A stretch of DNA of 64,000 nt from Flavobacteriales bacterium (GCA_017303755.1 JAFLBS010000007.1:92470-156469), one strand, 5' to 3'. Positions 13,780 to 61,285 are shown, numbered from the stretch's first letter. Program-made: numbers and translations. The notes: a model not told the origin generated them from the sequence alone.

Positions 13780-15018
13780 CTATGAACTTTTCGCAACTAG
13801 TTGAGGTGCTAATTTTTGCTTGAGAATAGCCATATCATCACTAACTTTTCTATCAACTACTTTTGCGTAATGTTGCGTGGTTCTGATGTTAGTGTGACCA
13901 AGCATTTTGCTCACGCTTTCTATCGGAACGCCATTTGTAAGCGTTATAGAAGTTGCAAATGAGTGTCGTGCAAGATGAAAAGTTAATTCGGTTTTAATGC
14001 CACAAACATCACCAATTTCTTTTAGATAGCTGTTCATTTTTTGATTGCTTAGAACAGGAAGGATTGTTTCTTCATTTATGCACTTTGGATGCGATGCATA
14101 CTTTGCCATGATTTGTTCTGGAATAGGAAGTAATGGAATTTTTGAACTGGTATCGGTTTTTTGCCTGTTCTTGAAAATCCATTTGTTGCCATCAATACCA
14201 ATTCCAATATGATCAGAAGTTAATTGTTTTACATCGATGTAAGCAAGACCTGTGAAACAACAAAATATGAAAATATCACGCACTTGAATTAATCGTTCAC
14301 AATGAAACTTCTTGTTGTAAATAGTTTCGATTTCGCTCTCAGTTAAAAAATCTCTTTCAACTTCCTTGATTTTTCCCTTATACTTTACAAATGGACTTTC
14401 AATAATCCATCTGTTATCCAAGCAGATTTGAATTATCTTCTTGAAGTTTTTGATGTATTTTACAGTTGTATTGTTACTGCAACCACGTTCAGTTCTCAAG
14501 TAGAAATCGTAATCGGTTATAAAAGCTAAGTCGATATCCTTGATATTAATATCTGAAATATTGAATTTCCATTTCATGAATTCTTTAGTATGGCTAAGTG
14601 AAGTTTTGTAACGTTCTAATGTTCCTGGAGAATATTCTTCAGTCTTTACTAAAGCTTCAATTTGATCATTGTGATTTTGAAAGATGGGTACTAGTGTTCG
14701 CTGTTTTTCAGTTTTGCCTGTCAGCACATTATTAAAAACTTCGGCAGTAATGTCCTTATCAACTGCGATTAGTTTCTTTTCAATACTAGAATTTTTTGCA
14801 ATCAGTGAATCAAGGTGGCTATTTATTGTTCTAGCTTCTTCAGAAGTGCCTTTCATTCTGCCTGCTTCTGTTGACCATTTTGTAGGATCAATGTACTTTC
14901 CGGTGCTTTTGTCAAGGCGTTTTCCGTTGATTGTGGTTCTGTGATAAATTGGAACTAGTCCGTGTACATTGGCTTTCGCTCTTTTTAGATAAAAAAGATT
15001 TGTGATTGTTGCTTCCAT
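13780..15018 (-). CDS. int: Tyrosine integrase (Bacteroidota NBU/CTn type) of the left island
   Basis: Arm-binding N-domain, SAM-like domain, R (FTGLAY family variant), HLARHSFAT, LGH, Y (TQHYAK). Adjacent to the att copy at 15269. Confidence 0.95.
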   Translation of the reverse strand: MEATITNLFYLKRAKANVHGLVPIYHRTTINGKRLDKSTGKYIDPTKWSTEAGRMKGTSEEARTINSHLDSLIAKNSSIEKKLIAVDKDITAEVFNNVLTGKTEKQRTLVPIFQNHNDQIEALVKTEEYSPGTLERYKTSLSHTKEFMKWKFNISDINIKDIDLAFITDYDFYLRTERGCSNNTTVKYIKNFKKIIQICLDNRWIIESPFVKYKGKIKEVERDFLTESEIETIYNKKFHCERLIQVRDIFIFCCFTGLAYIDVKQLTSDHIGIGIDGNKWIFKNRQKTDTSSKIPLLPIPEQIMAKYASHPKCINEETILPVLSNQKMNSYLKEIGDVCGIKTELTFHLARHSFATSITLTNGVPIESVSKMLGHTNIRTTQHYAKVVDRKVSDDMAILKQKLAPQLVAKSS

Positions 15019-16011: not shown

Positions 16012-16770
16012 ATGGCTAGACAGAAAGGCATAATTAAATTAAAAGGTACTATCGGAGATATTACTTTTTACAAAACGCAAGATGGACACTTGGCAAGAGA
16101 AAAAGGCGGAATTGACGCTAGTAGAATTGCAAGTGATCCAGCGTTTCAAAGAACTCGTGAGAATGGTTCCGAGTTTGGCAGAGCAGGAAAAGCTGGGAAG
16201 CTTTTGCGCACTGCTTTAAGACCATTACTTATTAATTCTGCTGATGGTAGAATGGTAAGTCGATTAACCCAAGCTATGGTTAAAGTTATTCAAGCTGACT
16301 TAGTGAGTGATAGAGGTTTGCGTAACGTTATTGATGGAGAAGCTGAATTGTTATTTGGTTTTGAATTCAATATTCGTGGTAAATTAGGTACAAGCTTGTT
16401 TGCACCATTTGTAGCAACAATTGATCGTGTTGCTGGTGAAATTTCAGTTGATATTGCTTCGTTTATTCCTGCGAATATGATTGCTGCACCAAGTGGAACT
16501 ACTCACTTCAAAATTATTTCTGGCGGTGCTGAGGTAGATTTTGAAGCTGAAACGTTTGTTGTTGCTACTTCTGAAACTGCAATTTTGCCATGGGATGCAA
16601 CACCAACAGCTGTTATTAATCAAGTGAATGCGGTTACTGCTGCTAGTACGAAACCTTTGTTTTTGGCTTTGGGAGTTGAATTTTATCAACAAATTAATGG
16701 AACTATGTATCCGCTGAAAAATGGTGCATTTAACCCATTATCTGTTGCTAAGGTTGACAGTGGTGTGTAA
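16012..16770 (+). CDS. Conserved hypothetical protein (252 aa), candidate structural protein
   Basis: Strong A-rich leader, basic N-terminus (MARQKGIIKLKGTIGDITFYK), helical middle, beta-rich C-half. Coupled to the next gene. Confidence 0.8.
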   Translation: MARQKGIIKLKGTIGDITFYKTQDGHLAREKGGIDASRIASDPAFQRTRENGSEFGRAGKAGKLLRTALRPLLINSADGRMVSRLTQAMVKVIQADLVSDRGLRNVIDGEAELLFGFEFNIRGKLGTSLFAPFVATIDRVAGEISVDIASFIPANMIAAPSGTTHFKIISGGAEVDFEAETFVVATSETAILPWDATPTAVINQVNAVTAASTKPLFLALGVEFYQQINGTMYPLKNGAFNPLSVAKVDSGV

Positions 16771-17165
16771 TGGTTTTATTGCTTACTAGAACTTATTTCC
16801 CTGAAGGAACGAATGGTAAACTCGAATGTGAAGGTAAATTGATTTGCAATACAATTGAATTGCCTTGGAAGATGAACGAAACGAAGGTTTCCTGCATTCC
16901 TGAAGGGAAGTATTTTATTAAAAAGCGATACAGTCGGAAGTTTCAATGGCATTTGGAAGTGATTGATGTAAAAAATAGAAGCTTTATTCTATTTCATTCT
17001 GCCAATAATGCTCTCAAAGAGCTAAATGGTTGTATTGCTCCAGTTACAAAACTTTCTGGACCAGGTTTAGGCCTGATGTCGAGAAAGGCATTTATCAAGT
17101 TAAAAAACTTGGTATATCGTGCTTTAGATAGCACAGAAAAAGTTTTATTAATTATTAAATCGTAA
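16770..17165 (+). CDS. DUF5675-family protein (YkuD/L,D-peptidase-like His/Cys motif), putative lysin
   Basis: GTNGKL..CNTIELPW..SCIPEGKY..ILFHSANN...GCIAP pattern. Confidence 0.8.
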   Translation: MVLLLTRTYFPEGTNGKLECEGKLICNTIELPWKMNETKVSCIPEGKYFIKKRYSRKFQWHLEVIDVKNRSFILFHSANNALKELNGCIAPVTKLSGPGLGLMSRKAFIKLKNLVYRALDSTEKVLLIIKS

Positions 17166-17169
17166 AAAG

Positions 17170-17790
17170 ATGAAAAATTTATTGAATACAATCGTTTTTA
17201 AATCCCTAGCATTATTTGCAATGGTTTTGTTAGTAGCTTTTGCAGTTACTACAAGTTTTAACCCTTTAGATCAATCTAATGATATTGGAGGTAAAAACAA
17301 AGATATTATTAAGCATACAACTGATACTCCTATCGCGGATATTGGTGGTGGTGGAAAAGGAACCTCAACCACTTTGAAAGCAGATATTGGAGGTAGCAAA
17401 GGTATAAAAGGTGAAGTTATCGACAATCAATATGAGATTTCTGATATTGGTGGAAGAAATACTAATACTACTGGAAACTTTTCTGTTGACGATATCGGAG
17501 GAAGAAATGGAACAGGAACTTCAACTGGTGGTGAATTTCAAATTACAGATATTGGTGGAAGAAGTACAACTTCAACTGGAAATTACACTTCAAATGATAT
17601 TGGTGGTAGAGGAACAAACACAGGGACTGGAGAATATTCAATTTCAGATATTGGAGGTAGAAGTACCAATTCAACAGGAAACTTTGCTTCAAATGATATT
17701 GGTGGTTCAAGAGATCATGTAATTATTAGAAGAATTCCAATACCATTTGCATCCGAAATTGGTGGAAAAAGTACAACAATTGGTCAGTAA
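17170..17790 (+). CDS. Secreted protein with ten (D/E)IGG repeats
   Basis: Hydrophobic signal peptide, then ten (D/E)IGG-anchored Gly/Thr/Ser/Asn-rich units of about 15-21 aa. Confidence 0.85.
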   Translation: MKNLLNTIVFKSLALFAMVLLVAFAVTTSFNPLDQSNDIGGKNKDIIKHTTDTPIADIGGGGKGTSTTLKADIGGSKGIKGEVIDNQYEISDIGGRNTNTTGNFSVDDIGGRNGTGTSTGGEFQITDIGGRSTTSTGNYTSNDIGGRGTNTGTGEYSISDIGGRSTNSTGNFASNDIGGSRDHVIIRRIPIPFASEIGGKSTTIGQ

Positions 17791-18484: not shown

Positions 18485-18904
18485 TTATTTAATATATCTG
18501 TGCAAAATAACTCTCCGCATATCATTGATAAGATTTAGATTTTCATGGAAACGTTTTTCGCTTTGTTCCAAAAGCTTTAAAGTTTCGATATTCTTAACGT
18601 GTTCCTTATGGTCTTTTATCTCTTGGTTGACTTTTATTGAAAATTCTTTTCTAATGTCGTATAAGCTCAAAAATGGGATTACTGAACCTCTAAGGAATTG
18701 ATGCCAAAATTTTGTTTTCCAAAGTGCATAAGCCGTTAAATTGATAGTGTCAAAATCAGATTCGTTTTCAAAAATGATAACAAAACTGTTTGTAAATGGC
18801 TCTATTTGTGGCTTTCCGCTGTTCATTCCTTTGTTAAGCAGGAATAAATGTGGTTTTGTGTAGATAGTTTCTTTTCTGTGGCTTTTAATGATAAATTTCA
18901 GCAT
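18485..18904 (-). CDS. DUF6943-like protein
   Basis: FLLNKGMNSGKP...FTNSFV...LRGSVIPFL pattern, typical of Bacteroidota mobile elements. Confidence 0.7.
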   Translation of the reverse strand: MLKFIIKSHRKETIYTKPHLFLLNKGMNSGKPQIEPFTNSFVIIFENESDFDTINLTAYALWKTKFWHQFLRGSVIPFLSLYDIRKEFSIKVNQEIKDHKEHVKNIETLKLLEQSEKRFHENLNLINDMRRVILHRYIK

Positions 18905-19046
18905 AACATCGGGTTTAAAAAATTAGATTAATTTTCAATTTTTTGTGGTGTTTCTTATGAAATGCAGTTGTGCCTCGCTACGCTCCGCCCATTAAAATTT
19001 TTCAAAAGAAAAAAAGAAAAAAAAGAAAGCCATTCGTCCAAGTGGA

Positions 19047-20306
19047 AGGTTTCAAAAAAGCAAGTTTTTCAGAAAAAATACTACCCGATAAGTGATTGAA
19101 ATCGTTAGCATCTAATCGAAAGTAGTATGTATTTTGAAACTGTTTGGGTGGAGATTTTTTCTGAAACCCGCAGGGCTTGAACTTGCTTTTTTGAATACCT
19201 GGAACTTATCTTTGCTTCCTTTTTTTTTTATTTATTTTGAAATTTCAATCTGTTGTTCTTATAAAATCGAAGTTGATTCTGAAGTAATGAGAGTTGAATT
19301 GGAAGATGTTCGTCTTCGGAAAGGGTATCAAATTCTTTGGATGGATGAATAAACCAAATCAGAAAATAAAAAAGCTATTCATCCGGCCAAAGAATTTGAT
19401 ACTCTTTCTTGGATTTGATTTTTGAGGATGCCTAAAAGTCAGTTGCAAGTGGCAGTGTTCAGTTAGCAGTTAATAATCTTATGGAAATGGGAAGCATCTT
19501 CAAAAAACAATGCATTATACTGCCGAGTGCGATGTGGCAGTAGCGCAAGTAAGGGTATCATTTTTTATTTGCTTATTGGGATGTTTCTGATTGCTTTAGT
19601 GGAAAAGCTGATGCCTGAAATTCAGTTGACAGTCGCAGTGTTCAGTATTCGGCAGATTATCTTAAAAAACGGTATGGCATCAGCTTTTTCGCTGGAGCAA
19701 TTATTACTTGTTTTCTGGCAAATAAAAAATGATACTCTTACTGGGGATTTTGGTTTTGTGGGTTCTAAAAATGGCTTTACCATAGGCAAATAATTAAAAG
19801 TTAAAGCCATTTTTAGAACTTACAAAAGCAATGAAAACACTTCCTATTTAAACGCAAAGTTGATAAAAACAGTTACCGTGAACGTTCATAAAAGCAATGG
19901 TAACCGAAACTATTCCTATGATATGGTAAATGTTCTTAAAGACAGTGGCGAAGGACGGTTTTTTTTGTAGCTGGGTGATGCGATGGGAGCTACAAAAAAA
20001 GTTGTCCTAGAGCCACTGGCACGAGCGTTGGGTGAGCGGCTTTTTTACATAATGTTATTATAGTGCATCCGAGATTTTGATTAGTAGCAGGATAGTCCCT
20101 ATGCACTATAATGCAACATTATGTAAAGAAGCTTGGGAAAAAAAATTACTGGCATGAGTTGCGAAGCGTACGTGTTTTTGTTTTGTGCGTTGGGCAAGCT
20201 CTTTGGCTGATGGCGTGCAGGATTTTTCAATTTACATATAATTTTCTTGCCATCAGGTAAAGTGCTTGATGAGCGTTGGGACAAAAACCATGACAGTAAT
20301 TTTTTT
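19047..20306 (+). other. Non-coding array of about eight long imperfect hairpins
   Basis: Stems: 19051-79/19154-95, 19323-51/19376-404, 19419-31/19494-506, 19589-615/19676-702, 19754-79/19802-27, 19943-72/19988-20018, 20039-68/20101-32, 20139-56/20289-306. Confidence 0.85.
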
Positions 20307-20335
20307 AGGAGCGTTGGGAAGGAGTGGCAATAAAG

Positions 20336-21262
20336 CTATAATTGAATATTTTTGATATAAAATCCTAACTCATATTCAATAGAATCACTCTCTAAATCAG
20401 GATCAATATCGATTTCTTTTAATACTAATTTATTATTTCTTGTGTCTGTATAAGAATCAATTGCTTTAGGGATTTCTATACCAGTAATATCTTCAATAAG
20501 AGAAATGTTAACTTGATAAGTGTCTGCATCTTTAAATTGCATAAAAAGTTGGTCTTCTGATTCTAATTCTTCTATAATATGATTTTCTTGAAGCAATTTA
20601 TTCTGGCTCATCATAAACCCGACCCTGTAAAGATTCCCATCTTCTTTTTGAAAAACAACGACTTTCCAAAACAGAGAAGGGATTTGTATTTGTTTACCAT
20701 TTATAGGTGTTACAAAATATGGATTTGAACTTAATAAAACTGGACCTGTAAAAACACAAATACGTAATTCATTTCGCTTTGTTTCAGTATGGAGTATGTA
20801 ATCCTCTAAACTTCGCCATATATCTCTATTTAAATCTTTGTGCTGTGGAACTGCATTCGTATAATAAAATGTTGAGTTAGCAGCATTTAAGGCTATCCCA
20901 GGAGTTTCTCCCCATTGTACGTCTTCCCGTTTAGTCATATGACCTTTGTCAAAATCACTTTTTAGGGCACTGTAGAGTTCTTTACCCATTTGAAACTCTT
21001 TGGATAATCTTGTGTCTTTTCGCCAATTATCCTTTCTTGGAACTTTCTTAAATTGAATTCCATCAATATTTGTTGCTGTATAGAATGGAAACTTGTGAGA
21101 TGCAGATTGTTGTAAACTGTAATTAATGTATTTTATAACTTTATTACCTTCATCATCTGAAACCAAATCATCATTTTGGTCTGAGCTAAGATTAGGTAAA
21201 AGTACCGTTTGGTTTGAGATGAATTGTTCATCATAACCTTGAAATAATTTTTCACTTATCAT
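20336..21262 (-). CDS. DNA/RNA non-specific endonuclease (NucA/EndoG His-Me finger), no signal peptide
   Basis: FDKGHMTKR, TFYYTNAVPQHKDLNRDIW..LEDY, VFTGPV, IPSLFWKVV. Confidence 0.93.
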   Translation of the reverse strand: MISEKLFQGYDEQFISNQTVLLPNLSSDQNDDLVSDDEGNKVIKYINYSLQQSASHKFPFYTATNIDGIQFKKVPRKDNWRKDTRLSKEFQMGKELYSALKSDFDKGHMTKREDVQWGETPGIALNAANSTFYYTNAVPQHKDLNRDIWRSLEDYILHTETKRNELRICVFTGPVLLSSNPYFVTPINGKQIQIPSLFWKVVVFQKEDGNLYRVGFMMSQNKLLQENHIIEELESEDQLFMQFKDADTYQVNISLIEDITGIEIPKAIDSYTDTRNNKLVLKEIDIDPDLESDSIEYELGFYIKNIQL

Positions 21263-21266
21263 AAAT

Positions 21267-22298
21267 TCAGTTTTTATGGTTGTCTTTTACAAATTGAATA
21301 ATTTTATTAATGAAAATACCTTCATTCCGTGATTTGATTCCTGTAGGAAGTTCTGGCTCTCCTGGTCTACTTCCACCTCCACTATGATGTAAAGCTACTA
21401 CTTCCCAATCTGAATTAAATACGGGAGAACCGGAAGATCCTTTTAATGTATCTGTGAGATATTGAACAACTCGGCTGTCTGTATGGGTTACGATGTTATG
21501 ATAAAGAGAAATTTGTTTCATTTCTCCTCCAGGATGCTGAATAATATTAACGAAATCATTTGGTTTTATTTCAACATCATTTAGTTCTATATATCCGTAT
21601 GAGTCTAATTCTCCTTGTTCATGAATGAGTTTACAAACTATTGTGTCATATTCATTTACAGTAGACCAATATATGGGTTTATTTTCATCAATATGGAAGC
21701 CTTTAGAAGGAATGCTGTTACCGTTTATATCCAATTCATAATCAAAAATAATTTTAGTTTTAGCAATGCGATTTTCATCTTTGATAACATGATAATTAGT
21801 AATAAAAAACAACTCATCGATGCCCTTCACCTTGAAGAGAAATCCGGTACCAACATCAAAACGATTGCTACCTACCTTAATTTCTACTTTTCCAACAGCT
21901 TTGCTTTTCTGAACTCCTTTTGCTAAAAAGTTAACAGGAAGCAAAGTACTACGCCCCATTGTCAAAACTTCTAGCGTTTCTTCAGCGACATCTTGCCATT
22001 TGGAAACTTTATCAATATCCGGGCTTAAAGAATAATCAATTTCTTTTGTAGCCAAAGCCGATTTTAAAAATGGATTATCAGGATAGGTGTCTAATACAGA
22101 TTTTACTAATTCATCAACTTTACTGTTCTTGTCTGCTTCACTTAGAACATTGCTCCAAACGTCCATAGCGTTACCACTTTCATTTATATGTTGTGGTTTC
22201 AGCCCTGCTGCTTTTACATATTTTGTGATTCCATCCTTATTAGGAACCAAGTCACTTAAAACATCATTTAATTGCGTAAGTTTTTTTGTCCAAGCCAT
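21267..22298 (-). CDS. EAD1-trypsin-like (V8-type) serine protease
   Basis: N-terminal ~80-aa EAD1-like domain. Catalytic triad TNYHVI, YDTIV, GSSGSPVF. Confidence 0.92.
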   Translation of the reverse strand: MAWTKKLTQLNDVLSDLVPNKDGITKYVKAAGLKPQHINESGNAMDVWSNVLSEADKNSKVDELVKSVLDTYPDNPFLKSALATKEIDYSLSPDIDKVSKWQDVAEETLEVLTMGRSTLLPVNFLAKGVQKSKAVGKVEIKVGSNRFDVGTGFLFKVKGIDELFFITNYHVIKDENRIAKTKIIFDYELDINGNSIPSKGFHIDENKPIYWSTVNEYDTIVCKLIHEQGELDSYGYIELNDVEIKPNDFVNIIQHPGGEMKQISLYHNIVTHTDSRVVQYLTDTLKGSSGSPVFNSDWEVVALHHSGGGSRPGEPELPTGIKSRNEGIFINKIIQFVKDNHKN

Positions 22299-22299
22299 T

Positions 22300-23445
22300 T
22301 TATATAAATATTTGTGGATAATCTACTGTTACTCTATCAACAAGGTTTTCTACCATTTCTTTTTTGATACACAAATCAATAAGTTGGGAAGACATATTGA
22401 CCGCCGAGTCTTCTACCAATAAAGAAACATTCACGCCAATTTTTTTTGCCAAAGTTCTAACTGATACACTGGATTGATAATATTGCGGAAGCTTTATCAT
22501 TAACTCTTCTACCGATTGCTCCTTGAAATATGCTCCGCGAATTCTCTCGTATAGTAAGTTTAGTTTTGCCTTTTCAGAAGTACTCGATAATTCTGATGGG
22601 CATAAATACCTAGATTCAAAAATTGGATTTACTATATTGGGATTTAAAAGGTATTCACCGTTTCGTCCTTCTTTCTTTGCATATTCTTTAAAGAAATGTT
22701 CAATTTCACTATTAACATTTTTCACTTTACTATCTGCCGTTACATATACAAAGTCATAAAAAAGACTATCTTGATATTCGTATTCCATTAAAGAAAAAGG
22801 ATGATAAGCGACAGGATAATTTCTTTCTAATACTTGGATTTTATCAATAGAATCAATTACCAAATATCCTCTGGGTATATCTTTGGTTGAAGCAAATTTT
22901 GATGCCCAGTAAATATCCATTGGTAGCCATTTAGCACCTCTAATCATAACGCAATCTCCTTGCTTGATTTTCAAATGATCGTAAACTTCAGGGAAGCATA
23001 ACAAAGGAATCCCAGTAGATGCATTACAACCAGCACTAACTGATAATAATACTTTTCTTTCATCAGTCGGTGGTAATAATAATGTACCTACACCTCCCAT
23101 CACTTTTTTAGATTTCCCAGGAGGATAAAACTCTATCCACTGCTTACTTTGTAAAGCAATATCTTCCATCTTATGCTGTCTTATTTGTTCTGATGATGGA
23201 GTCCAATAAAGTCCAGGAACACGAGCAACCCAATCGGAAACTACAAAATCGTATAAGTCAATTTTTTGGTTCCAATATTTAGTGGGATCAGCAATTACGT
23301 TTCTCCAAAACTCTTCATCATTAGAGAACCAAAAGTTTTCATAATTTGAAATATTTTCATTTAGAGAGTTTACTTCTTCAGCTAAAGCATAATTCTCTAT
23401 AGTTTCAATGAGTTTTGTTCCTTTGTATAATTCTTTTAGGCCCAT
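22300..23445 (-). CDS. Unknown ~305-aa domain with a C-terminal EAD1-like domain
   Basis: The last ~70 aa align by eye with the trypsin N-domain (L...YY...V..LAK.IG...LV..V..DYP). Confidence 0.7.
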   Translation of the reverse strand: MGLKELYKGTKLIETIENYALAEEVNSLNENISNYENFWFSNDEEFWRNVIADPTKYWNQKIDLYDFVVSDWVARVPGLYWTPSSEQIRQHKMEDIALQSKQWIEFYPPGKSKKVMGGVGTLLLPPTDERKVLLSVSAGCNASTGIPLLCFPEVYDHLKIKQGDCVMIRGAKWLPMDIYWASKFASTKDIPRGYLVIDSIDKIQVLERNYPVAYHPFSLMEYEYQDSLFYDFVYVTADSKVKNVNSEIEHFFKEYAKKEGRNGEYLLNPNIVNPIFESRYLCPSELSSTSEKAKLNLLYERIRGAYFKEQSVEELMIKLPQYYQSSVSVRTLAKKIGVNVSLLVEDSAVNMSSQLIDLCIKKEMVENLVDRVTVDYPQIFI

Positions 23446-23451
23446 AATCAG

Positions 23452-25989
23452 TTATGTTTTTATGAAGTTTTTTCTTAAATCATATATGATTTTAAACTTC
23501 TGGTTTTCCCCATATTGTTTTTTTACTTCTTTAAGTAAATTGTTCATTGTTATTTCTTTGAAGTGCTCCTTGCGTAATTTATAAAACACATTACTCCAAA
23601 TTTCGCTTGATGTTCCTTTTGCGAGTAGATCAGATTCTTTTCCTCCTGCCTTTTTCCAAATTGTTGTTAATGAAGTCCCATTTGGATATAGCTCAACAAT
23701 TAATTCTTCTGCACTTTGCCACCATTCATTTGTTGGAATACTAACTGAGGATAAAATACCTGAAAATGATAAAAGTCCTTTGGTTATAAAGTCAAGAAGG
23801 TGGTGACATTCTGCTAATGCAAATTTCCAATTATTGTTTTTGGAAGCTTTGGAATTAATTATATAAGTTGAATTGGAAAATCGTCTTTTTGCTATCAGTT
23901 GCCCCAATTGAGTCGCGTCAATAGAACTAATTTGTCCTGAAAAGTTATTCAAATAATCTCGAAGATTACTGTCGCTCAACTGAGAAAATCTATCAAATAC
24001 TTGAATTACAGATTTAAGATTATTTCTATTGAAATACAAGAAATCAGCGATGCCCTTTCTACTTATGTGATCCAACAAAACAGCATCATTAGGTATCTCA
24101 ATGGTTGAGTTTTTACTGAGTTGTTCAAGTAATTCAGCAGACGTTTTGATTAAGAAATTGTCTTTTGCAGATGAAGGAAATTTACCCCATAAAATAGTCC
24201 TATTAGGATACGTTAGTAGATTTCCAAATTCGGAGTGGGAAATTTTATTAATAAGTCTTTCAGAAACCACATTGCCACCAATAAGATGGTCAAACAATTT
24301 ATGTATTTCTTTTTGAGGCTCTTTTAAACCAGAATCCACTTGATTTCCATTTTCAATTGCCTCAGCCCAAATTAGCTGCCAGTTGTCATTTAAAACATCT
24401 ATTCTCTTCAGATTCTTAGATGAATAATGGCAGATTTTACCGGCAATTTTAATCATTCGAGATTCACCAGTATCAATAGCATAATCAACAATTGAGTTAT
24501 CATCTTTTCCTGTTACTATCGCCTCAACAGCTTCAAAATAATTTTCATCCTGATCAATTTTGAATAGTTCTGTTAGAGCAGTACCTAATTCAAATTGCCT
24601 ATCCAATAGATATGCGTATAACCTTAGCCAATTATTGCTAATAGAGAATTCTTGTAGTTCTTCAATAAGTTCCTTTGAAATTTTCTTAGGTAACTTTTCA
24701 ATAAAACAGCTTTCAGCATTTTTGGATTTGTCGATAAAAGATTTAATTATGGACAGAATGAATGGTGATTCCATTAACCAAGTGTAAACAATAGCAATCT
24801 TGGAAGCTTGAGCGGTTCCTAAGTAGGATTCAAGCTCTTGTGTTATTACTTTATCCCACCAATTCGGATTACTCTTTTTTACCTGCTCAAAAAATGAGGT
24901 ATATCCAACTGATTTATTTTCAAGTGAAAAAATATATTTCTTCATCCAGCCTATTAAAGCTGTTGATAAAGTTTTTTTTGAGTTCTTGAAGCTCTCCGTT
25001 TTGAAATTCCTTAATATATTTAGGTCAGAAAAGTTTGCCGATTCTGCTAATTGGACAATCTTATTTAATAATAGTTGCTTAAAATCTGTACCTTGTTTGT
25101 CCGAATGAGCATATTCTGCTACAATATGTGAAAGGGTATTTAGCTTTTTAAGATCTCTTACGCTGTCTAAGTGTTCAAAAGTATCAATACCTTTCGCTAT
25201 TAAGGCAATATCTTCTCGTGAAAGAGACTTTGATTCAATCGCTTTCTCGAAATTGCTAATACGTTGTTGAACGGACACATCACCAATTAATAATTGTTCT
25301 ATTAACTCGGTAGGTTCATGGTTGTCGTTCTTTCCAATAACAAAGAAGTCCGATCGGAGAAACTTGCTTTGAACACTTTCAGGTACAGCAATTAGGCTTA
25401 TGTGATTAGTTTCTTTATGGTCATTATTGAATGCAATACCAAACTGAAAATTTGGTCGTTCAATAACGGTTAGACGTTTCCACAACTCTATAACCGCTGT
25501 GTCAAAACCTTCCTGCCCAATCCATATTAATGTATTCTTATGGCTGTTTATGTTAATATAGCCATTAATAAGTTTGTTGAATTTGCCCCGAATAGCATCC
25601 GGTATACCGACGGCATCATTTGAGGACATTTCTATTGAAATCGGTTCCAGATCCGTACTCTTATTTATTTCTTGGGGTAATAGACTTATAATTTGCACTA
25701 TATTATCTATTTTTATTATTTCTTCTTTCTGAATCATCAGAACATGAGAATATTTCCTGCCTCTTCTTACATCAGGAGCTGTATCCTCAAATGTTTTCAT
25801 AATCAAAAAATAGTCTCCTTCCGAAAATCCGCGAATAGCAGGCTCCCAATTAACTCCACTAGTTTGATCTTGTAAATCCGTCCTAAAGGCAATGCTCTTA
25901 GCGATATTAACATCCGGCAAGGTAGTTTTTATTAAACCCCATGCTTTATTCACTTCTCCGCAAATGGATTGATGTATTATTACTTTCAC
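23452..25989 (-). CDS. GAP1-type (GTPase-associated protein 1) with a C-terminal EAD1-like domain
   Basis: N-terminal IHQSICGE..D...G..YFLIMKTF.D...RRGR..SHVL (GAP1-N1-like), long helical middle, C-terminal ELYPNG...IWKKAGG...IWSNV. Confidence 0.75.
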   Translation of the reverse strand: MKVIIHQSICGEVNKAWGLIKTTLPDVNIAKSIAFRTDLQDQTSGVNWEPAIRGFSEGDYFLIMKTFEDTAPDVRRGRKYSHVLMIQKEEIIKIDNIVQIISLLPQEINKSTDLEPISIEMSSNDAVGIPDAIRGKFNKLINGYININSHKNTLIWIGQEGFDTAVIELWKRLTVIERPNFQFGIAFNNDHKETNHISLIAVPESVQSKFLRSDFFVIGKNDNHEPTELIEQLLIGDVSVQQRISNFEKAIESKSLSREDIALIAKGIDTFEHLDSVRDLKKLNTLSHIVAEYAHSDKQGTDFKQLLLNKIVQLAESANFSDLNILRNFKTESFKNSKKTLSTALIGWMKKYIFSLENKSVGYTSFFEQVKKSNPNWWDKVITQELESYLGTAQASKIAIVYTWLMESPFILSIIKSFIDKSKNAESCFIEKLPKKISKELIEELQEFSISNNWLRLYAYLLDRQFELGTALTELFKIDQDENYFEAVEAIVTGKDDNSIVDYAIDTGESRMIKIAGKICHYSSKNLKRIDVLNDNWQLIWAEAIENGNQVDSGLKEPQKEIHKLFDHLIGGNVVSERLINKISHSEFGNLLTYPNRTILWGKFPSSAKDNFLIKTSAELLEQLSKNSTIEIPNDAVLLDHISRKGIADFLYFNRNNLKSVIQVFDRFSQLSDSNLRDYLNNFSGQISSIDATQLGQLIAKRRFSNSTYIINSKASKNNNWKFALAECHHLLDFITKGLLSFSGILSSVSIPTNEWWQSAEELIVELYPNGTSLTTIWKKAGGKESDLLAKGTSSEIWSNVFYKLRKEHFKEITMNNLLKEVKKQYGENQKFKIIYDLRKNFIKT

Positions 25990-26816
25990 AATAATGCCTG
26001 CTCTATTAGTTCTGTAATGTCATTTGTTTGGACGCCATCAGGCAATACTAAATATCCAAATTCTTCTGGTCCCTCAATCTGATATTTTTCTTTGTTCTCC
26101 GGTGTAGTCAGAGAAAACCCTTGAGCAGAAAGACCAACTAAGTTCAGATAATTTTCATCCCAGTTAGACTCCAAGAAGTTTAATAAAAGTGGTAATTTAG
26201 ATTGCAATACATTATAAGGCTTTTCTTCTGTATTCATTTCATCCCAGCAGGTTAAGACAATGGTCAACTTCGGCTTATCATTTACCTTATGGTAGTCTGT
26301 TCCTTTAGCATGTAAAAGGATTTGTAATAATTCGATAAAAAAGCTTTGATCCGATATTTTATACTCGGTTTCAGAAACCGGCTCTTTCGCATTTTTATGA
26401 TGTTGTTCAGAATAGGTAACATCACTGATATCTAAAGGCTTGTTTACATTATTTAACCTGATAAATAAAATCCAGCTGTTACTTTCCTGTATGGAAGCTG
26501 TCCATTCTTTATTTAACTCCCGATTTTCAACAATACTTAAAACCTGTTCTCCTCCATATTCGGGACATTTTAAATCAACCTGCTTTTCAGCTACCTGAAT
26601 AGGTAAGTAAAACTTCACACTTTTTTCAGATGGAGTTGTCTGTGGTTCTTCTCCTGATGCTAATGCTTCTCTTGCCCCGGAAATAGGAGATAGATCATCC
26701 ACTGATTTATAAAGCTTCAGCTTACTCTTATTTTTCTGCAATTTTGAGTAAAATTGTGAAAGGAATACTGTCTTGGATGAATGTGGTTTTCCGATAAGTA
26801 ATATAGATGTACCCAT
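25986..26816 (-). CDS. TRAFAC-clade GTPase domain protein, degenerate motifs
   Basis: G1 GKPHSSKT, G3 EYGGE, G4 TCWDE. Confidence 0.8.
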   Translation of the reverse strand: MGTSILLIGKPHSSKTVFLSQFYSKLQKNKSKLKLYKSVDDLSPISGAREALASGEEPQTTPSEKSVKFYLPIQVAEKQVDLKCPEYGGEQVLSIVENRELNKEWTASIQESNSWILFIRLNNVNKPLDISDVTYSEQHHKNAKEPVSETEYKISDQSFFIELLQILLHAKGTDYHKVNDKPKLTIVLTCWDEMNTEEKPYNVLQSKLPLLLNFLESNWDENYLNLVGLSAQGFSLTTPENKEKYQIEGPEEFGYLVLPDGVQTNDITELIEQALL

Positions 26817-27776
26817 TTATGTGCTTTTATAATTTAAGAAAATGTCATTTACCGTGCTATCATTTTCAATTAGAATTTCAGACTTGCTTACAGTAAACAC
26901 TCTGGAAAGTAGCCAGTCCAGTACAGCAATGTTGTTCTTATGAACTAATACATCAGGATCATCTGAAGAAAAATTACTGATATCTATCTCTTTATAGTTC
27001 TCAAAAAGTTCTTTCAACTCTCCTTGTAGCTTTTCTCGAATTACTGCATGCACTTCTTCTTTTTTATCACTTTTTGACCAAACAGCAATAACGGGTCTGT
27101 TTCTTATATCGTGCCTTAACATTTGTGCCATATCCACGATGTCAGTCTTTGCCAGAGCCTTTCTATTAATCAAATCATCACAATCAATAAAGAGTATAAA
27201 AGCATTTGAATGTTCATAAATCCATCTGGCATTCTCCGCGTTTTCATCATTACGATTTTTTGACCAAATAGAAAAAACCTCACCAGATGCATCAGATATT
27301 AAAATGTCTTTTAATTTTTTTTTCTGATTTCGTAATGCCAAATGCAATAAGCGGATGTATTGAGCGGGAGTAGGATCAGGAAATGTGACACCTTCTTGTT
27401 GAACCCTCAATTTTTGATATAATTCATCCCAAGCATTTATTGTTTGCGTACCGCAAAAGTCAAATTCTTTAAGTTTTATACCTCTAAGAAGTAATGTAAA
27501 AAGCATGGCGAGATATGTTGTTTTCCCTGCATCAGCTTTTCCTATTACACCGATGATTAGAGGGGTATTTCTATAGGTTATTTTGGGCAATTCATCTATA
27601 GTCAAAGCGTCCCCTGTCCATGGCAAATCGGATTTTTTCTCTTTTTTTGGAGCACTTTTGGTTTTGGATTGCGGTGCATTTGACTTCATCCAAAACTCAC
27701 ATTCCGTAGGCTTTTCTTTTCCTTCATGGCAACTGATTGGTGCAGCACAGTCAGGATTTGAACACTTTCCTGTCAT
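26817..27776 (-). CDS. TRAFAC-clade GTPase with a Cys-rich N-terminus
   Basis: G1 GKADAGKT, G2 PDPT, G3 DASGE, G4 SKSD. N-terminal C-x4-C-x5-CH-x8-C. Confidence 0.85.
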   Translation of the reverse strand: MTGKCSNPDCAAPISCHEGKEKPTECEFWMKSNAPQSKTKSAPKKEKKSDLPWTGDALTIDELPKITYRNTPLIIGVIGKADAGKTTYLAMLFTLLLRGIKLKEFDFCGTQTINAWDELYQKLRVQQEGVTFPDPTPAQYIRLLHLALRNQKKKLKDILISDASGEVFSIWSKNRNDENAENARWIYEHSNAFILFIDCDDLINRKALAKTDIVDMAQMLRHDIRNRPVIAVWSKSDKKEEVHAVIREKLQGELKELFENYKEIDISNFSSDDPDVLVHKNNIAVLDWLLSRVFTVSKSEILIENDSTVNDIFLNYKST

Positions 27777-27777
27777 A

Positions 27778-29025
27778 CTACTTTGTATTTAGAATTTTTA
27801 CTAATTGAAAGTCATGAAATAACCAAGTGGTCAACTCATTTGGAGCTAGTTTTATATTTAATCGTATCCCTACAAACTCTTCAAATTGAGCTAACTGATT
27901 TTTATTCCATATGAGCCCATTGATGAAGTTTAGCAATGTTGACTTTCCTGTCAATGCTTCAGTCTCGGGAAATATGGGTTTCAATTCCTCTGTATGCTCT
28001 TGAATAGATTTGAGAAAGTCTTCAAGGGTTAGTTCTTCCTTCGTACTTTCTTTTAATCCTTTATAAGTTTCTTTCAGAAAATAATCAACGCTTTTTGGGT
28101 AGATCACTGGGATAAAGATTGAATAATCATAAGCCAAGACTATTCCCAAAATACTTTTATCCAGTTCATCATAACTTCTATCTGTAGAGGCTGAATACCC
28201 AGCTTCTTTCCACCACAACAGTTCTGATCTTAGCTGTAATGATTTATTTCTATTCGAAACTTCCTTTTGTACTTGTTCTAATGCTTTATTTAAACTGTTT
28301 TGAATTGTGTTTTTATTCTCATTTACAACAGAAGCAATAGCTCTTAAGGAAGGATCTATTGCGCTTTTTATTCCTTGTGCAGCTTTGGGAGCAAATTGAT
28401 ATGACCAGTGTTGCCCTTGATTAGGCCAATATTGGTTAGGAGAATCGAAATTCGCAGTTCCCTGTGCATTGTGTTGTCCTGACGCATCTTCCAAGTGTTT
28501 TTGAAGCGTCTCTTTATTAATTAGGTAGGCTGAGATTTCCTTAAGTTCAAAACTAATTTTTGATAAGGAGTCACTGCCTGACAATACCCATTCTCTGTTA
28601 GCTTTTTGATTGATATCATTGCCCAACCTGGAAATAAACTCTAATATAATTTCTTTTTCTTTCCCAATCAGCTTATGATATTGAACAATGTTTCTGCTGG
28701 CAAACCAAATAAATAGGGAATGATTAACATCTTCGCTTATGCAGCTTAAAGCCTCCAACATAACCGCCCTAATATAGGTTAGAGGGGTGTCTTTTGCATT
28801 GGTAGCAAATGTGCTCCAATTCTTTATTATGACATCTTTGACTTCTACTATGTCAGCATTGTCAATAGAAGTATCAGTGTCAATTGCCGATAGTGTATAT
28901 GACACTATTTTAGCTTTACTTTTTGCCAATTTTTTAGAGATATCGTCGGCAGACTTTTTTAATTTTTTGAAATCGCCATCATCTGTTAGTGAGAGAAGAT
29001 TAGCGTTTAAGTAATTTTGTAGCAT
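27778..29025 (-). CDS. All-helical protein, GASH-like (GTPase-associated system)
   Basis: 415 aa, helical, ELLWWKEAGYS motif, immediately upstream of the GTPase pair. Confidence 0.7.
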   Translation of the reverse strand: MLQNYLNANLLSLTDDGDFKKLKKSADDISKKLAKSKAKIVSYTLSAIDTDTSIDNADIVEVKDVIIKNWSTFATNAKDTPLTYIRAVMLEALSCISEDVNHSLFIWFASRNIVQYHKLIGKEKEIILEFISRLGNDINQKANREWVLSGSDSLSKISFELKEISAYLINKETLQKHLEDASGQHNAQGTANFDSPNQYWPNQGQHWSYQFAPKAAQGIKSAIDPSLRAIASVVNENKNTIQNSLNKALEQVQKEVSNRNKSLQLRSELLWWKEAGYSASTDRSYDELDKSILGIVLAYDYSIFIPVIYPKSVDYFLKETYKGLKESTKEELTLEDFLKSIQEHTEELKPIFPETEALTGKSTLLNFINGLIWNKNQLAQFEEFVGIRLNIKLAPNELTTWLFHDFQLVKILNTK

Positions 29026-31404: not shown

Positions 31405-31405
31405 C

Positions 31406-32494
31406 TTATTCTACATTTAAAGCGTTCCTAACTTGTCTAATTGAAATATCTAAATAACTTGCTATTTGTTTCTGTGGTATATGACTTTCGTTTAAAAACT
31501 TAATCATTTCCTCTGGAAGAAATCTGTTGTTGTTTTTGTATTTAAAATATTCAGAAAAGATATCTTCATATTCAAAAACTGATTTTTTTATGATTGAATT
31601 ATAATATGCACTATTAATGATTTTAATAATCTCAGAATGTGATAAATTGCTCATATAAGTTTTAACCATTTCAAATTTTTTATCATCTGTCGCTAAATCA
31701 GAACCAATTTTATCAAAATAGTTCTCTACAAGATTTTTTATTTCATCAGAATTTGGTTTGTTTACATTTACGACTTTTTCAAATCTTCTCCAAATTGCAC
31801 TATCTAGCAATTGTTCGTGATTAGTTGCCGCAATCAATATCCCTGTTTCTAGAAATTCATCTATATTTTGTAAAAGACTATTAATTACCCTTTTTAATTC
31901 TCCGGTTTCTTGATTATCGTCTCTCGCTTTTGCTATAGCATCAAACTCATCTAAGAACAAAATGCAAGGCTTACTTTTTGCGTAATCGAATAATTTCCTA
32001 ATATTCTTTGCTGTACTACCTAATAGGGAAGAAATTAAAGAATCAAAACGCGCTACTACAATTGGAATATCTAGCTCTTTAGCAATATGTTTGGCTAATG
32101 TTGTCTTTCCACAACCTGGAGGGCCATAAAGTAAAAGAGAAAGATTAATGTCTAAACCTTTACTTTTAATTTCATTTTTAGAATTTACTAATGAAATAAA
32201 ATTATTTATTGGCTCAACAATACCCTCTGAAACTATTATATCAAACTTTATGTCTTGAGGCAATATAATATCAGCAATATTTAGCCTTGTGTCATTATCT
32301 ACAGGCGCATCAAATAATTGATCTTTAAAAACAGGCATGCCTTTAGCTCCTTGGATTGTTTTCAAAATTTTGTCAGCTAATTTACTATCACCATCATCTC
32401 TTAATTTTTTTGCTAAATGATTGGAGTAATTAATTACCTTTTTATGATCATTATTCAATCCACCTTCAATTATTTTTATTAGTTCTGTATACAT
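31406..32494 (-). CDS. ietA: AAA+ ATPase, IetA-like
   Basis: GPPGCGKT, LFLDEFD, ATNH, AIWRRF. Directly upstream of the S8 protease. Confidence 0.88.
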   Translation of the reverse strand: MYTELIKIIEGGLNNDHKKVINYSNHLAKKLRDDGDSKLADKILKTIQGAKGMPVFKDQLFDAPVDNDTRLNIADIILPQDIKFDIIVSEGIVEPINNFISLVNSKNEIKSKGLDINLSLLLYGPPGCGKTTLAKHIAKELDIPIVVARFDSLISSLLGSTAKNIRKLFDYAKSKPCILFLDEFDAIAKARDDNQETGELKRVINSLLQNIDEFLETGILIAATNHEQLLDSAIWRRFEKVVNVNKPNSDEIKNLVENYFDKIGSDLATDDKKFEMVKTYMSNLSHSEIIKIINSAYYNSIIKKSVFEYEDIFSEYFKYKNNNRFLPEEMIKFLNESHIPQKQIASYLDISIRQVRNALNVE

Positions 32495-61200: not shown

Positions 61201-61285
61201 CGGAGAAAGAGGGATTCGAACCCCCGGACCTGTTACAGTCAACAGTTTTCAAGACTGCCGCAATCGACCACTCTGCCATTTCTCC
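61201..61285 (-). tRNA. tRNA-Ser(TGA)
   Basis: GGAGAAA/TTTCTCC acceptor stem, GCAGT-CTTGAAA-ACTGT anticodon arm, long variable arm, GGTTCGAATCC T-arm. CCA not encoded. Confidence 0.97.

Follow-up and report, generated by a model that had tools for sequence, protein, structure and literature searches.

A GAP1-N1 DO-GTPase operon ending in an EAD1-trypsin and a cytoplasmic NucA-type nuclease: comparative evidence for a probably protease-licensed effector

The GAP1-N1 DO-GTPase ternary conflict system was predicted by Kaur, Burroughs, Iyer & Aravind (eLife 2020, PMC7159879), who described a GAP1-N1 system with an EAD1-coupled trypsin and, in the same in silico work, had suggested that a NucA-trypsin pairing is 'activated via a proteolytic cascade'. 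Protease activation has been shown experimentally for MBL-fold nucleases only (Tuck et al. Science 2025, PMC12799240), and experiments elsewhere have established protease-associated alpha/beta-fold hydrolases as zymogens that a protease activates (bioRxiv 10.1101/2025.11.14.688446). No experimental study of any DO-GTPase system or of a protease-activated NucA was found in the literature searched.

The window analysed here, the whole 64,000-nt stretch of DNA, carries on its minus strand a seven-gene operon of which a trypsin gene and a nuclease gene are the last two (ORF map and Pfam). The genes run in the order GASH, ZnR-DO-GTPase2, DO-GTPase1, GAP1 (with a C-terminal EAD1), OB381, EAD1-trypsin and NucA, with 0-9 nt between genes or an overlap (ORF map), and Pfam names all five core families and both effector domains of the cassette. 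The genes are:

27778..29025, minus strand: GASH (GTPase-associated system helical) protein, 415 aa, the first gene of the cassette (Pfam PF19994, E 3.4e-85)
26817..27776, minus strand: DO-GTPase2, 319 aa, with an N-terminal zinc ribbon (Pfam PF19993, E 1.8e-57)
25986..26816, minus strand: DO-GTPase1, 276 aa, P-loop GKPHSSKT (Pfam PF19975, E 2e-78)
23452..25989, minus strand: GAP1, 845 aa (Pfam PF20012, GAP1-N1, residues 5-104, E 7.8e-21; EAD1, E 1.5e-8)
22300..23445, minus strand: OB381, an uncharacterised protein of 381 aa, directly upstream of the trypsin gene
21267..22298, minus strand: EAD1-trypsin-like serine peptidase, 343 aa (Pfam)
20336..21262, minus strand: cytoplasmic NucA/EndoG-type nuclease (Endonuclease_NS, beta-beta-alpha-Me), 308 aa (Pfam)

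The protease and nuclease ORFs are neighbours 4 nt apart, and their coordinates match exactly those of a preliminary description of this DNA, whose placing of an EAD1-trypsin beside a NucA-type nuclease agrees with Pfam. Its view of the two as a protease-nuclease effector pair stands as far as functional coupling is concerned (protein fusions and effector swapping, below), but the pair is not autonomous and ends a seven-gene operon. As in the described GAP1-N1 system, GASH, two DO-GTPases (one with a Zn ribbon), a GAP1 with GAP1-N1 and a C-terminal EAD1, and a downstream EAD1-trypsin follow one another in order, and the Bacteroidota origin fits. Unlike the window, the effectors in the text of PMC7159879 (calcineurin phosphoesterase, PNPase, TIR, SLATT, trypsin, caspase, alpha/beta-hydrolase, DNA glycosylase) do not include NucA, and that account is without OB381 and without a two-tier output of a constant protease followed by a swappable terminal effector. 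The reading favoured here, which is on balance probable, is that the pair forms the output end of a cytoplasmic GAP1-N1 DO-GTPase conflict system in which the protease licenses a latent nuclease.

The two DO-GTPases are paralogous and encoded by neighbouring ORFs. The zinc-ribbon pattern of DO-GTPase2, CxxxxC...CH...C in residues 5-27 (C5, C10, C18-H19 and C27), is a putative metal-binding site, and its residues were kept across 6 loci together with the P-loop, GKADAGKT; the P-loop of DO-GTPase1 was also conserved. GASH was found in all complete cassettes. The start of GAP1 overlaps the end of DO-GTPase1 by 4 nt, and its middle region is fast-evolving and the part most divergent from the near-identical locus L003. 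Homologues of the cassette parts occur in several Bacteroidota genera.

The genome is from Bacteroidota, and the cassette lies within a defence island carried by an integrative element, with Iet, AbiEii, type I RM/SIR2/PLD, integrases and RteC near the cassettes; these genomic neighbours suggest a role in defence. PADLOC and NCBIfam have no models for the seven genes and returned only a generic trypsin similarity to LmuA and RT-protease. Across the whole window Rfam gave a single match, a tRNA at 61201-61285; promoter and terminator scans were at or under shuffled expectation, and a search for RNA evidence returned none, the runs containing the sequence being DNA metagenomes (activated sludge) only. 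A conserved small immunity ORF was not found 3' of the nuclease, in a region kept only in L003. A Kyte-Doolittle scan showed no signal-peptide-like or TM-like hydrophobic segment in any of the 7 operon proteins, and the nuclease in particular lacks an export signal, as the preliminary description had held: the maximum KD(10) over its first 40 residues is 0.90, with no hydrophobic h-region, and no signal peptide, lipobox or T9SS domain was detected on it (Pfam, hydropathy). Endonuclease_NS enzymes are commonly secreted, and one Bacillus plasmid relative of the nuclease sits amid secreted peptidase genes, which would suit an ordinary secreted or nutritional nuclease lying by chance beside a housekeeping peptidase, with no conflict system involved. 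Given the missing secretion features, and the placing of the genes in a conserved seven-gene operon that carries dedicated conflict-system domains and lies in defence islands of mobile elements, this explanation is extremely improbable.

Two features of the nuclease bear on how its activity might be controlled:

20939..20950, minus strand: catalytic D105-K106-G107-H108 motif (invariant in alignments)
20339..20467, minus strand: C-terminal tail of the nuclease, residues 266-308, 43 residues (alignments)

The Endonuclease_NS match spans residues 39-265 (Pfam, E 3.1e-41). The DKGH motif, claimed to be intact in the preliminary description, is invariant in 52 homologues, as are N136, N145 and E153, and in profile alignment these catalytic residues align with the DRGH, Mg-Asn and Glu of solved EndoG, NucA and Serratia nuclease; the AF2 model of the nuclease matches the EndoG/Serratia fold (Foldseek). 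Relative to EndoG, a 6-residue clade-specific insertion follows DKGH, inside KREDVQW (residues 111-117), where pLDDT is 59-70. The solved EndoG, NucA and Serratia chains match the core only, to about profile position 226. In the tail, the strand KLVLKEIDI is joined by a variable, acidic linker, DPDLESDSIEYE, to the hydrophobic strand GFYIKNIQL-COOH, which ends the protein. A search of phage genomes gave no nuclease homologue.

The protease was resolved into two domains, and a second EAD1 was located in GAP1:

22056..22283, minus strand: N-terminal EAD1 of the protease, residues 6-81 (Pfam EAD1, E 2.2e-10)
21390..21851, minus strand: Trypsin_2 catalytic domain of the protease, residues 150-303 (Pfam, E 2.6e-19)
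23482..23733, minus strand: predicted protease-docking EAD1 at the GAP1 C-terminus, residues 753-836 (Pfam EAD1)

The catalytic triad H170/D218/S289 is present and invariant in 120 homologues, in keeping with the earlier claim of an intact triad, and the EAD1 plus Trypsin_2 architecture was seen in all 120 of these proteins. The protease is a separate ORF with EAD1 as its sole additional domain and no fused sensor (Pfam). The EAD1 domains of the trypsin and of GAP1 are homologous (hhalign probability 95.6%, E 1.2e-8) and may bind one another. Compared with L003, residues 1-60 of the protease are 100% identical, and divergence is located in the GAP1 middle region and in protease residues 90-240; the idea that the EAD1 pair co-varies from the window to L003 was rejected, the EAD1s being the most conserved parts. 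The nearest solved relatives of the protease are SplE, V8 protease, exfoliative toxins and glutamyl endopeptidase (E 1e-4 to 1e-3). T284 and H304 are conserved and align gaplessly with V8 T164 and H184, which we take to be residues of the Glu-type S1 pocket, and D283 at the chymotrypsin-189-equivalent position leaves the S1 specificity uncertain.

The preliminary description had drawn attention to an acidic C-terminal extension of the nuclease. The stretch in question, EIDIDPDLESDSIEYELG, corresponds to residues 283-300, and residues 266-308 as a whole hold 10 acidic and 5 basic residues and are strongly conserved in 52 close homologues. The acidity itself is a property of the close clade, in which E291 is invariant; in the wider clade, conservation of the tail is confined to the two hydrophobic strands, and the acidic stretch falls in the variable linker. 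The strand-linker-strand pattern up to the C-terminus is common to standalone, caspase-fused and trypsin-fused relatives, and both the tail and the N-terminal extension of 38 residues are conserved across the peptidase-linked NucA clade. The Glu-specific S1B relatives of the protease would suit a linker of this kind with its invariant E291. These features could be explained by a zymogen in which the acidic tail or the N-terminal extension occupies the active site as a DNA mimic, like NuiA or EndoGI, until it is removed by trypsin, the pair then being the effective unit. Such a model would account for a tail that appears specific to the peptidase-linked clade and always closes with a C-terminal hydrophobic strand, and for the unusually low pLDDT of the active-site segment, and it draws on the acidic linker and the resemblance of the protease to Glu-specific endopeptidases. 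It is nevertheless unlikely: the acidity is not conserved in the wider clade, the tail is modelled as structured (AF2; strands 280-283 and 301-304, pLDDT 70-84) and may simply be part of the fold, the obvious cleavable element in trypsin-NucA fusions is the N-terminal linker, and in all loci examined the pair was never alone but always behind DO-GTPase/GAP1 and OB381, or a GAP1 remnant. A NuiA-family match was found neither in the operon nor in neighbouring ORFs (Pfam), in line with the earlier statement that no NuiA-like inhibitor lies nearby.

Fusion of NucA to peptidases was surveyed among the 150 50%-cluster representatives closest to the nuclease (90 of them multidomain), by scanning 74 mid-length multidomain proteins (400-1000 aa) and two longer ones. 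Trypsin_2 was fused in 63 of the 74 and a caspase in 2, both longer proteins were WD40+caspase+NucA, and no export signal or TM segment was seen in the NucA fusion proteins. In P0241 a NucA with the tail is fused to an N-terminal part of 340 aa, and this part showed no similarity to trypsin or OB381. The window nuclease and the fused trypsin-NucA proteins fall in one clade. The NucA-peptidase 'System 3' (Kaur et al. 2020, PMC7159879) likewise combines NucA with a trypsin-like peptidase, sometimes EAD1-bearing, and proteolytic activation was proposed for it. System 3 itself is a self-contained core, mostly from alphaproteobacteria, often fused, in multiple copies or with TM segments, in genomes without another EAD1 system, whereas the pair in the window is subordinate to a DO-GTPase/GAP1 core, is from Bacteroidota and is made as separate polypeptides. 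Protease licensing of NucA thus appears well supported on comparative grounds. The latent, trypsin-activated nuclease of the preliminary description survives in this form, as an enzyme probably latent until the protease acts (fusions, effector swap and comparative evidence), although the idea is not new.

Gene order was the same in a further 9 distinct complete cassettes (L001, L002 (=L007), L003, L005, L006, L008, L014, L015 and L016), four of which (L008, L014, L015, L016) stop at or near the locus edge with the order identical through NucA. A scan of genome contigs with GAP1 yielded 5 loci only, and gene contexts were gathered by exact-protein look-ups. In two sister cassettes (L012/L013 and L017) a DUF900 alpha/beta-hydrolase takes the place of NucA while OB381 and the trypsin, including the trypsin S1 region, are retained, indicating that the last gene is a variable effector slot. 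The DUF900 proteins of L012 and L017 are 68% identical. The string 'IDID', present in the NucA tail and in the N-terminal region of DUF900 from L012, was considered as a common cleavage motif and attributed to chance because it is not conserved in L017, and no recognition motif common to NucA and DUF900 was found. In a natural relic (L010/L011) the GTPase core is missing and OB381, trypsin and NucA are intact, suggesting that this trio is tolerated without the switch.

These loci also bear on whether the protease and nuclease might act in parallel, the protease degrading host or phage proteins and the nuclease being controlled allosterically, or sequestered in the GAP1 complex, and remaining uncleaved. 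The trypsin itself was named an 'effector' of GAP1-N1 systems by Kaur et al. 2020 (PMC7159879), and the nuclease has neither an EAD1 nor a recognisable pro-peptide (Pfam). Against this stand the pervasive trypsin or caspase fusion in the NucA clade, the constancy of the protease while the last gene varies, and the precedent for protease-to-zymogen logic in analogous modules, which together make parallel action very unlikely. The likeliest role of the protease is to turn on an exchangeable death effector, which in the window is the nuclease.

The protein encoded between GAP1 and the trypsin is the second constant element of the output, and one segment of it stands out:

23068..23148, minus strand: OB381 loop, residues 100-126, 'W..F.PPGKS.KV.GG.GT.LLPP' (block conservation 0.77-0.92, pLDDT 31-44)

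OB381 is the constant companion of the trypsin, always adjoining it in all cassettes, and its homologues number only 181, all within this gene context. In the AF2 model (pLDDT 77) the core is a beta-barrel resembling an OB fold and the C-terminus forms a helical bundle, with weak Foldseek matches to RPA70N, MCM10 and HIN OB folds (E 6e-3). OB381 itself has no Pfam, PADLOC or NCBIfam match, and comparison with PDB sequences and a viral fold library found nothing. Its C-terminal helical bundle may be EAD1-like, given an hhalign probability of 39% (E 3e-4) against EAD1 and a Pfam EAD1 match in 1 of 47 members (E 0.004). Conservation in OB381 peaks at residues 100-126, although disorder is predicted there. 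These residues are a candidate docking or cleavage loop, and the best conserved candidate of this kind lies outside the nuclease. Between NucA-type and DUF900-type cassettes the loop shows one Leu-to-His change near its end and is otherwise identical. OB381 as a nuclease-specific inhibitor of the NuiA/ICAD type was disfavoured, as the protein is essentially unchanged where DUF900 replaces NucA.

The conservation of this loop in both cassette types, matching the unchanged protease, is what an ICAD/CAD-like mechanism would lead one to expect, in which the protease cuts OB381 at the invariant disordered loop, PPGKSKKVLGGIGT, and so frees an effector that intact OB381 restrains or tethers. The invariable adjacency of OB381 and trypsin is consistent with this, and a possible EAD1-like C-terminus could put OB381 on the same hub. 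It is nonetheless quite unlikely: OB381 would need to hold back both NucA and an alpha/beta-hydrolase, which are unrelated in fold, through a contact with NucA that is purely hypothetical; a Glu-specific protease would find no conserved acidic residue in the loop; and the OB-fold and EAD1-like assignments are themselves weak.

In the favoured reading, in which the protease licenses the nuclease, the cassette would operate in three layers: a constant sensor and switch (GASH, ZnR-DO-GTPase2, DO-GTPase1 and GAP1), a constant signalling module (OB381 and EAD1-trypsin), and a variable terminal effector, which would be a non-specific NucA/EndoG-type nuclease here and the DUF900 alpha/beta-hydrolase in the sister cassettes. 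An invader-dependent change of the GTPase/GAP1 complex would expose or cluster the C-terminal EAD1 of GAP1, and homotypic EAD1-EAD1 binding would then recruit the protease and activate it by proximity, like the recruitment of caspases by CARD or death folds. The activated protease would license the latent nuclease, leading to degradation of cellular nucleic acid and abortive infection. The likeliest licensing step would be direct cleavage of the nuclease, in the linker of its C-terminal tail or in its N-terminal 38 residues. From the gene and domain comparisons above we infer the role in defence, gating by the GTPases, recruitment through EAD1, licensing by proteolysis and the site of cleavage. 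Weighing against this reading are a tail modelled as structured, the failure to find a recognition motif common to NucA and DUF900, the location of the best loop candidate in OB381 and the uncertain S1 specificity of the protease.

A bolder extension would make the cassette a bacterial cascade resembling an inflammasome or apoptosome, to which GAP1, OB381 and the protease each contribute a death-fold-like EAD1 module. OB381 would then be an AIM2-like sensor-adaptor, with OB/HIN-like nucleic-acid-binding barrels and an EAD1-like bundle, whose invariant disordered loop is the first substrate or the activator of the protease; the nuclease would represent a new and widespread class of beta-beta-alpha-Me zymogens gated by a C-terminal strand, with hundreds of clusters fused or adjacent to trypsins or caspases; and the route from GTPase through death fold and serine protease to an EndoG-like DNase would predate eukaryotic apoptosis. 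This extension is speculative and very improbable as a whole.

Among experimentally characterised systems, the trypsin-MBL gated pro-nuclease modules (Hachiman, AVAST, Lamassu, DRT) and the caspase-nuclease (canu) loci (PMC12799240; 10.1101/2025.11.14.688446; 10.1101/2025.09.03.673762) place a sensor-controlled trypsin-like protease beside a latent cytoplasmic DNase that brings about abortive infection, as proposed here, and the trypsin-MBL modules are reused across sensors. They differ from the window in that their nuclease has the MBL fold and is unrelated to the beta-beta-alpha-Me NucA/EndoG type, their protease is fused to the sensor and the nuclease gene usually lies upstream, whereas the window has a separate EAD1-protease, and their cleavage sites and gating linkers are proven, whereas those of the window are candidates. 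DUF900 belongs to the same broad class, the alpha/beta-fold hydrolases, as the tested zymogen. In bacterial gasdermin/NLR-like systems (Wein et al., PMC10312443), a small helical adaptor domain at the N-terminus of a trypsin-like protease, resembling the arrangement in the window, is essential for activating a swappable downstream death effector, and the gasdermin-related effectors include endonuclease/phospholipase proteins; the upstream component there is an NLR-like ATPase and in the window DO-GTPase/GAP1, and EAD1 would be likened to CARD by its role.

The cassette is a compact, fully soluble seven-gene DO-GTPase version with an easily assayed DNase output, comes with natural controls in the sister cassette that has a hydrolase for the nuclease and in the relic without the switch, and draws attention to a 381-aa family, so far without annotation, that constantly accompanies the protease. 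If the protease does license NucA, a large unexplored set of cytoplasmic trypsin-NucA and caspase-NucA fusions would be explained, and the proteolytic control of zymogens established for MBL nucleases would also take in the EndoG/NucA superfamily used in eukaryotic apoptosis. In caspase-ICAD/CAD, EndoG/EndoGI and cyanobacterial NucA/NuiA, a non-specific nuclease is likewise kept harmless until a death signal, and the window nuclease is homologous to EndoG and NucA in both sequence and fold; those eukaryotic and cyanobacterial nucleases are controlled by an inhibitor or by compartmentation, whereas no NuiA/EndoGI homologue accompanies the window nuclease, which is proposed to be controlled by proteolysis.

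The two genes described preliminarily as an effector pair, an EAD1-trypsin beside a cytoplasmic NucA-type nuclease, corresponded exactly to two neighbouring minus-strand open reading frames with 4 nt between them. These close a run of seven minus-strand genes, spaced by 0-9 nt or overlapping by 4 nt:

27778-29025, minus strand: GASH (Pfam, strong score), first of the seven genes
26817-27776, minus strand: DO-GTPase2 (Pfam, strong score)
25986-26816, minus strand: DO-GTPase1 (Pfam, strong score)
23452-25989, minus strand: GAP1, with a GAP1-N1 domain and C-terminal EAD1 (Pfam, strong scores)
22300-23445, minus strand: OB381, 381 aa, no family match
21267-22298, minus strand: EAD1-trypsin, 343 aa (Pfam EAD1 at residues 6-81, E 2.2e-10; Trypsin_2 at residues 150-303, E 2.6e-19)
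20336-21262, minus strand: NucA nuclease, 308 aa (Pfam Endonuclease_NS at residues 39-265, E 3.1e-41)

The trypsin triad (H170/D218/S289) was unvarying in 120 homologues, and the nuclease DKGH motif (D105-K-G-H108), N136, N145 and E153 were unvarying in 52; by alignment, the nuclease residues match the catalytic His, Mg-binding Asn and Glu of solved EndoG, NucA and Serratia nuclease structures. The AlphaFold2 model of the nuclease (mean pLDDT 81.8) was matched by Foldseek to EndoG, Serratia nuclease and EXOG. A hydropathy scan revealed no signal-peptide-like or transmembrane-like segment in the nuclease or in any other operon protein, and there were zero NuiA matches in the neighbourhood. The tail described previously as acidic comprises residues 283-300, inside a 43-residue extension past the Pfam domain, and the extension is strongly conserved in close homologues (K278, L279, L281, I286, P288, E291, L299, G300, L308). 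The domains, both catalytic sites, the tail, and the missing export signal and inhibitor therefore bear out the original observation, with one qualification: the acidity of the tail is conserved in the close clade, where E291 is invariant, but the acidic run lies in a variable linker and is conserved in that close clade only. In the upstream genes, the zinc-ribbon cysteines and both P-loops of the DO-GTPases are conserved, and the EAD1 domains of GAP1 and trypsin are clearly homologous (hhalign probability 95.6%, E 1.2e-8).

Eighteen related loci (handles beginning with L) were collected by exact-protein look-ups and a single pattern scan; they include nine complete distinct cassettes apart from the window. 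The identical seven-gene order was present in L001 (Chryseobacterium), L002/L007 (MAG), L003, L005 (Flavobacterium collinsii), L006 and L008/L009 (Elizabethkingia), and likewise in L014, L015 and L016; L004 is interrupted by a contig end. A Paludibacter MAG (L012/L013) and a metagenome locus (L017) retain the first six genes; their last gene encodes, instead of NucA, a 527 aa DUF900 alpha/beta-hydrolase (L012 11207-12790, L013, and L017 5995-7581; Pfam E 6e-52) with a long, low-complexity N-terminal region; the trypsin S1 region and the OB381 conserved motifs are unaltered in these loci. Flavobacterium subsaxonicum (L010/L011) has lost the GTPase core, with GAP1 reduced to a 112-aa EAD1 remnant, after which OB381, trypsin and NucA are still intact (L010 8656-12111, and L011); the surrounding island also carries type I RM, SIR2 and PLD genes. 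Together with the conserved gene order, these exceptions argue for a three-layered cassette, in which the switch and the module of OB381 and protease stay constant and the effector in the last slot varies.

When 1.84 billion cluster representatives were searched exhaustively, 272 NucA relatives emerged at E <= 1e-30, and 90 of the best 150 exceeded 400 aa. A domain scan of the 74 proteins of 400-1000 aa from that best 150 found Endonuclease_NS in 74/74, accompanied by Trypsin_2 in 63 and by a caspase domain in two, with signal-peptide-like or transmembrane-like segments in none; both scanned relatives above 1000 aa had a WD40, caspase and NucA architecture. Because trypsin and caspase fusions abound and such segments are missing, the window's NucA clade is, judged from its sequences, peptidase-linked and cytoplasmic. 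Relatives carried on Bacillus and Paracoccus plasmids are one-gene proteins of approximately 600 aa, matched to the fusions by length, and no NucA homologues were found in phage genomes. The N-terminal extension (residues ~8-38, pLDDT 93-97 in the model) is common to the whole clade, as is the C-terminal tail: past the canonical 'TG.xF..D[PS]x' end, a variable linker leads into a short, hydrophobic strand, which stops at the C-terminus or within three residues of it. Specific to the peptidase-linked clade is a six-residue insertion past the catalytic His (within KREDVQW; 'VRRLDPxWG' in fusions), the least confident part of the model core:

20921-20941, minus strand: NucA post-His insertion, residues 108-114

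The closest solved relatives of the trypsin are staphylococcal SplE, V8 protease, exfoliative toxins and Bacillus glutamyl endopeptidase (E 1e-4 to 1e-3). Its alignment to V8 is ungapped across the catalytic Ser and places T284 and H304 on V8 T164 and H184, which shape the Glu-specific S1 pocket; the predicted P1 preference therefore leans towards acidic residues, though D283 occupies the chymotrypsin 189-equivalent position. An acidic preference would fit the NucA tail linker. Relative to L003, the closest relative, five of the seven operon proteins are 94-97% identical, with GAP1 at 83% and trypsin at 81%; the differences cluster in the GAP1 middle region and protease residues ~90-240 (43% identity over residues 211-240), and both EAD1s are 93-100% identical. 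Such a pattern resembles diversifying change, or recombination, confined to particular regions.

OB381 has 181 detectable homologues only, on contigs that repeatedly also hold trypsin and nuclease homologues. Its AlphaFold2 model (overall pLDDT 77) has a confident core of beta-barrels and a C-terminal five-helix bundle; Foldseek gave weak matches only, every one an OB fold (RPA70N, MCM10-ID, HIN; best E 6e-3), and sequence and viral-fold searches returned no relatives. Two segments stand out:

22312-22470, minus strand: C-terminal helical bundle, residues ~325-378
23068-23148, minus strand: most conserved stretch, residues 100-126, 'W..F.PPGKS.KV.GG.GT.LLPP' (shorter form PPGKSKKV.GG.GT.LLPP)

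Set against the trypsin EAD1, the bundle shows an in-register alignment with a YPQ end versus YPD; support is modest (hhalign probability 39%, E 3e-4), and one of 47 family members has a Pfam EAD1 match (E 0.004); it may be a third EAD1-like module of the operon. Residues 100-126 are a candidate docking loop or protease cleavage motif, because this most conserved stretch is also predicted to be disordered (pLDDT 31-44) and is near-identical between NucA-type and DUF900-type cassettes.

In the proposed mechanism, the GTPase/GAP1/GASH core would perform sensing and gating, the EAD1 of GAP1 would recruit and cluster the EAD1-protease, and the protease would license the terminal effector, here a non-specific nuclease that would kill the infected cell. 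Proteolytic licensing is probable. Its leading version, in keeping with the zymogen proposed in the preliminary description, is that NucA would be cleaved directly, in the tail linker or N-terminal extension; it leads because of the fusion statistics, the effector-slot swap, the clade-specific extensions and experimental precedents. Occlusion of the active site by the tail, as put forward in the preliminary description, would be a hypothetical detail of this version. These precedents comprise protease-activated MBL nucleases (PMC12799240; bioRxiv 10.1101/2025.11.14.688446), protease activation of associated alpha/beta-fold hydrolases (bioRxiv 10.1101/2025.11.14.688446), and trypsin activation of swappable effectors that depends on an adaptor domain (PMC10312443). 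The alternative, that the conserved substrate is the OB381 loop, draws on the predicted disorder of that loop and its near-identity in both cassette types; independent action of protease and nuclease is the least likely of the three.

Directly upstream of the operon is a separate known defence system, IetA (AAA ATPase) and IetS (S8 peptidase), identified by PADLOC and NCBIfam, and the island is flanked by a tyrosine integrase, RteC and further mobile-element genes:

29035-32494, minus strand: IetA/IetS pair, IetS stop 9 nt from the GASH start
13780-15018, minus strand: tyrosine integrase with Arm-DNA-binding domain
35366-36214, minus strand: RteC regulator
61201-61285, minus strand: tRNA gene

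The integrase, RteC and tRNA genes bracket the region, which suggests that a Bacteroidota mobile element, integrative or mobilisable, carries the defence island. The Iet-then-DO-GTPase neighbourhood also occurs in L016 (1-3396) and is absent from the remaining loci; activated-sludge metagenomes hold near-identical sequence. The 1.4 kb 3′ of the nuclease (18905-20335) has no long ORF, is dense in long inverted repeats, gave no Rfam match and is conserved (~84%) in L003 alone. Beyond it, three loci, one of them DUF900-type, have a DUF6943 gene 1.4-2.3 kb past the 3′ end of the cassette, and the other loci are without it; a 206-aa protein carries approximately eight copies of a ~16-residue 'DIGG[RK]..T..G.F' repeat (TRF period 48):

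19319-19408: inverted repeat, 33-nt arms
19548-19742: inverted repeat, 25-nt arms
19750-19831: inverted repeat, 30-nt arms
19427 and 19610: copies of a 55-nt direct repeat
18485-18904, minus strand (L003 16944-17507; L012 15057-15476): DUF6943 gene, 139 aa, Pfam E 4.9e-49
17170-17790, plus strand: 206-aa repeat protein, hydrophobic N-terminus, no family match
16770-17165: DUF5675 gene, adjoining the repeat protein

The operon almost certainly represents what Kaur, Burroughs, Iyer and Aravind (eLife 2020, PMC7159879) named 'GTPase-centric subsystem 1'. They describe its parts as GASH, a pair of DO-GTPases of which one bears a zinc ribbon at the N-terminus, GAP1, and effectors, trypsin, caspase and alpha/beta-hydrolase among them, joined by fusion or via matching EAD1 domains on GAP1 and the downstream effector; the window shares GASH, both DO-GTPases, the zinc ribbon, GAP1 and the EAD1-bearing trypsin. 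No PADLOC models were found for DO-GTPase genes, and no experimental papers on DO-GTPase, GASH, GAP1 or EAD1 systems in the library searched. Both the DO-GTPase system (PMC7159879) and the NucA-trypsin idea have been published as in-silico predictions, and the protease-to-pro-nuclease principle has experimental proof for another fold (MBL). New relative to the text of the prediction papers are the GAP1-N1 cassette with NucA as terminal effector, OB381 as constant partner, an output in two tiers where NucA and DUF900 exchange, and the C-terminal strand found throughout the clade of peptidase-linked NucAs.
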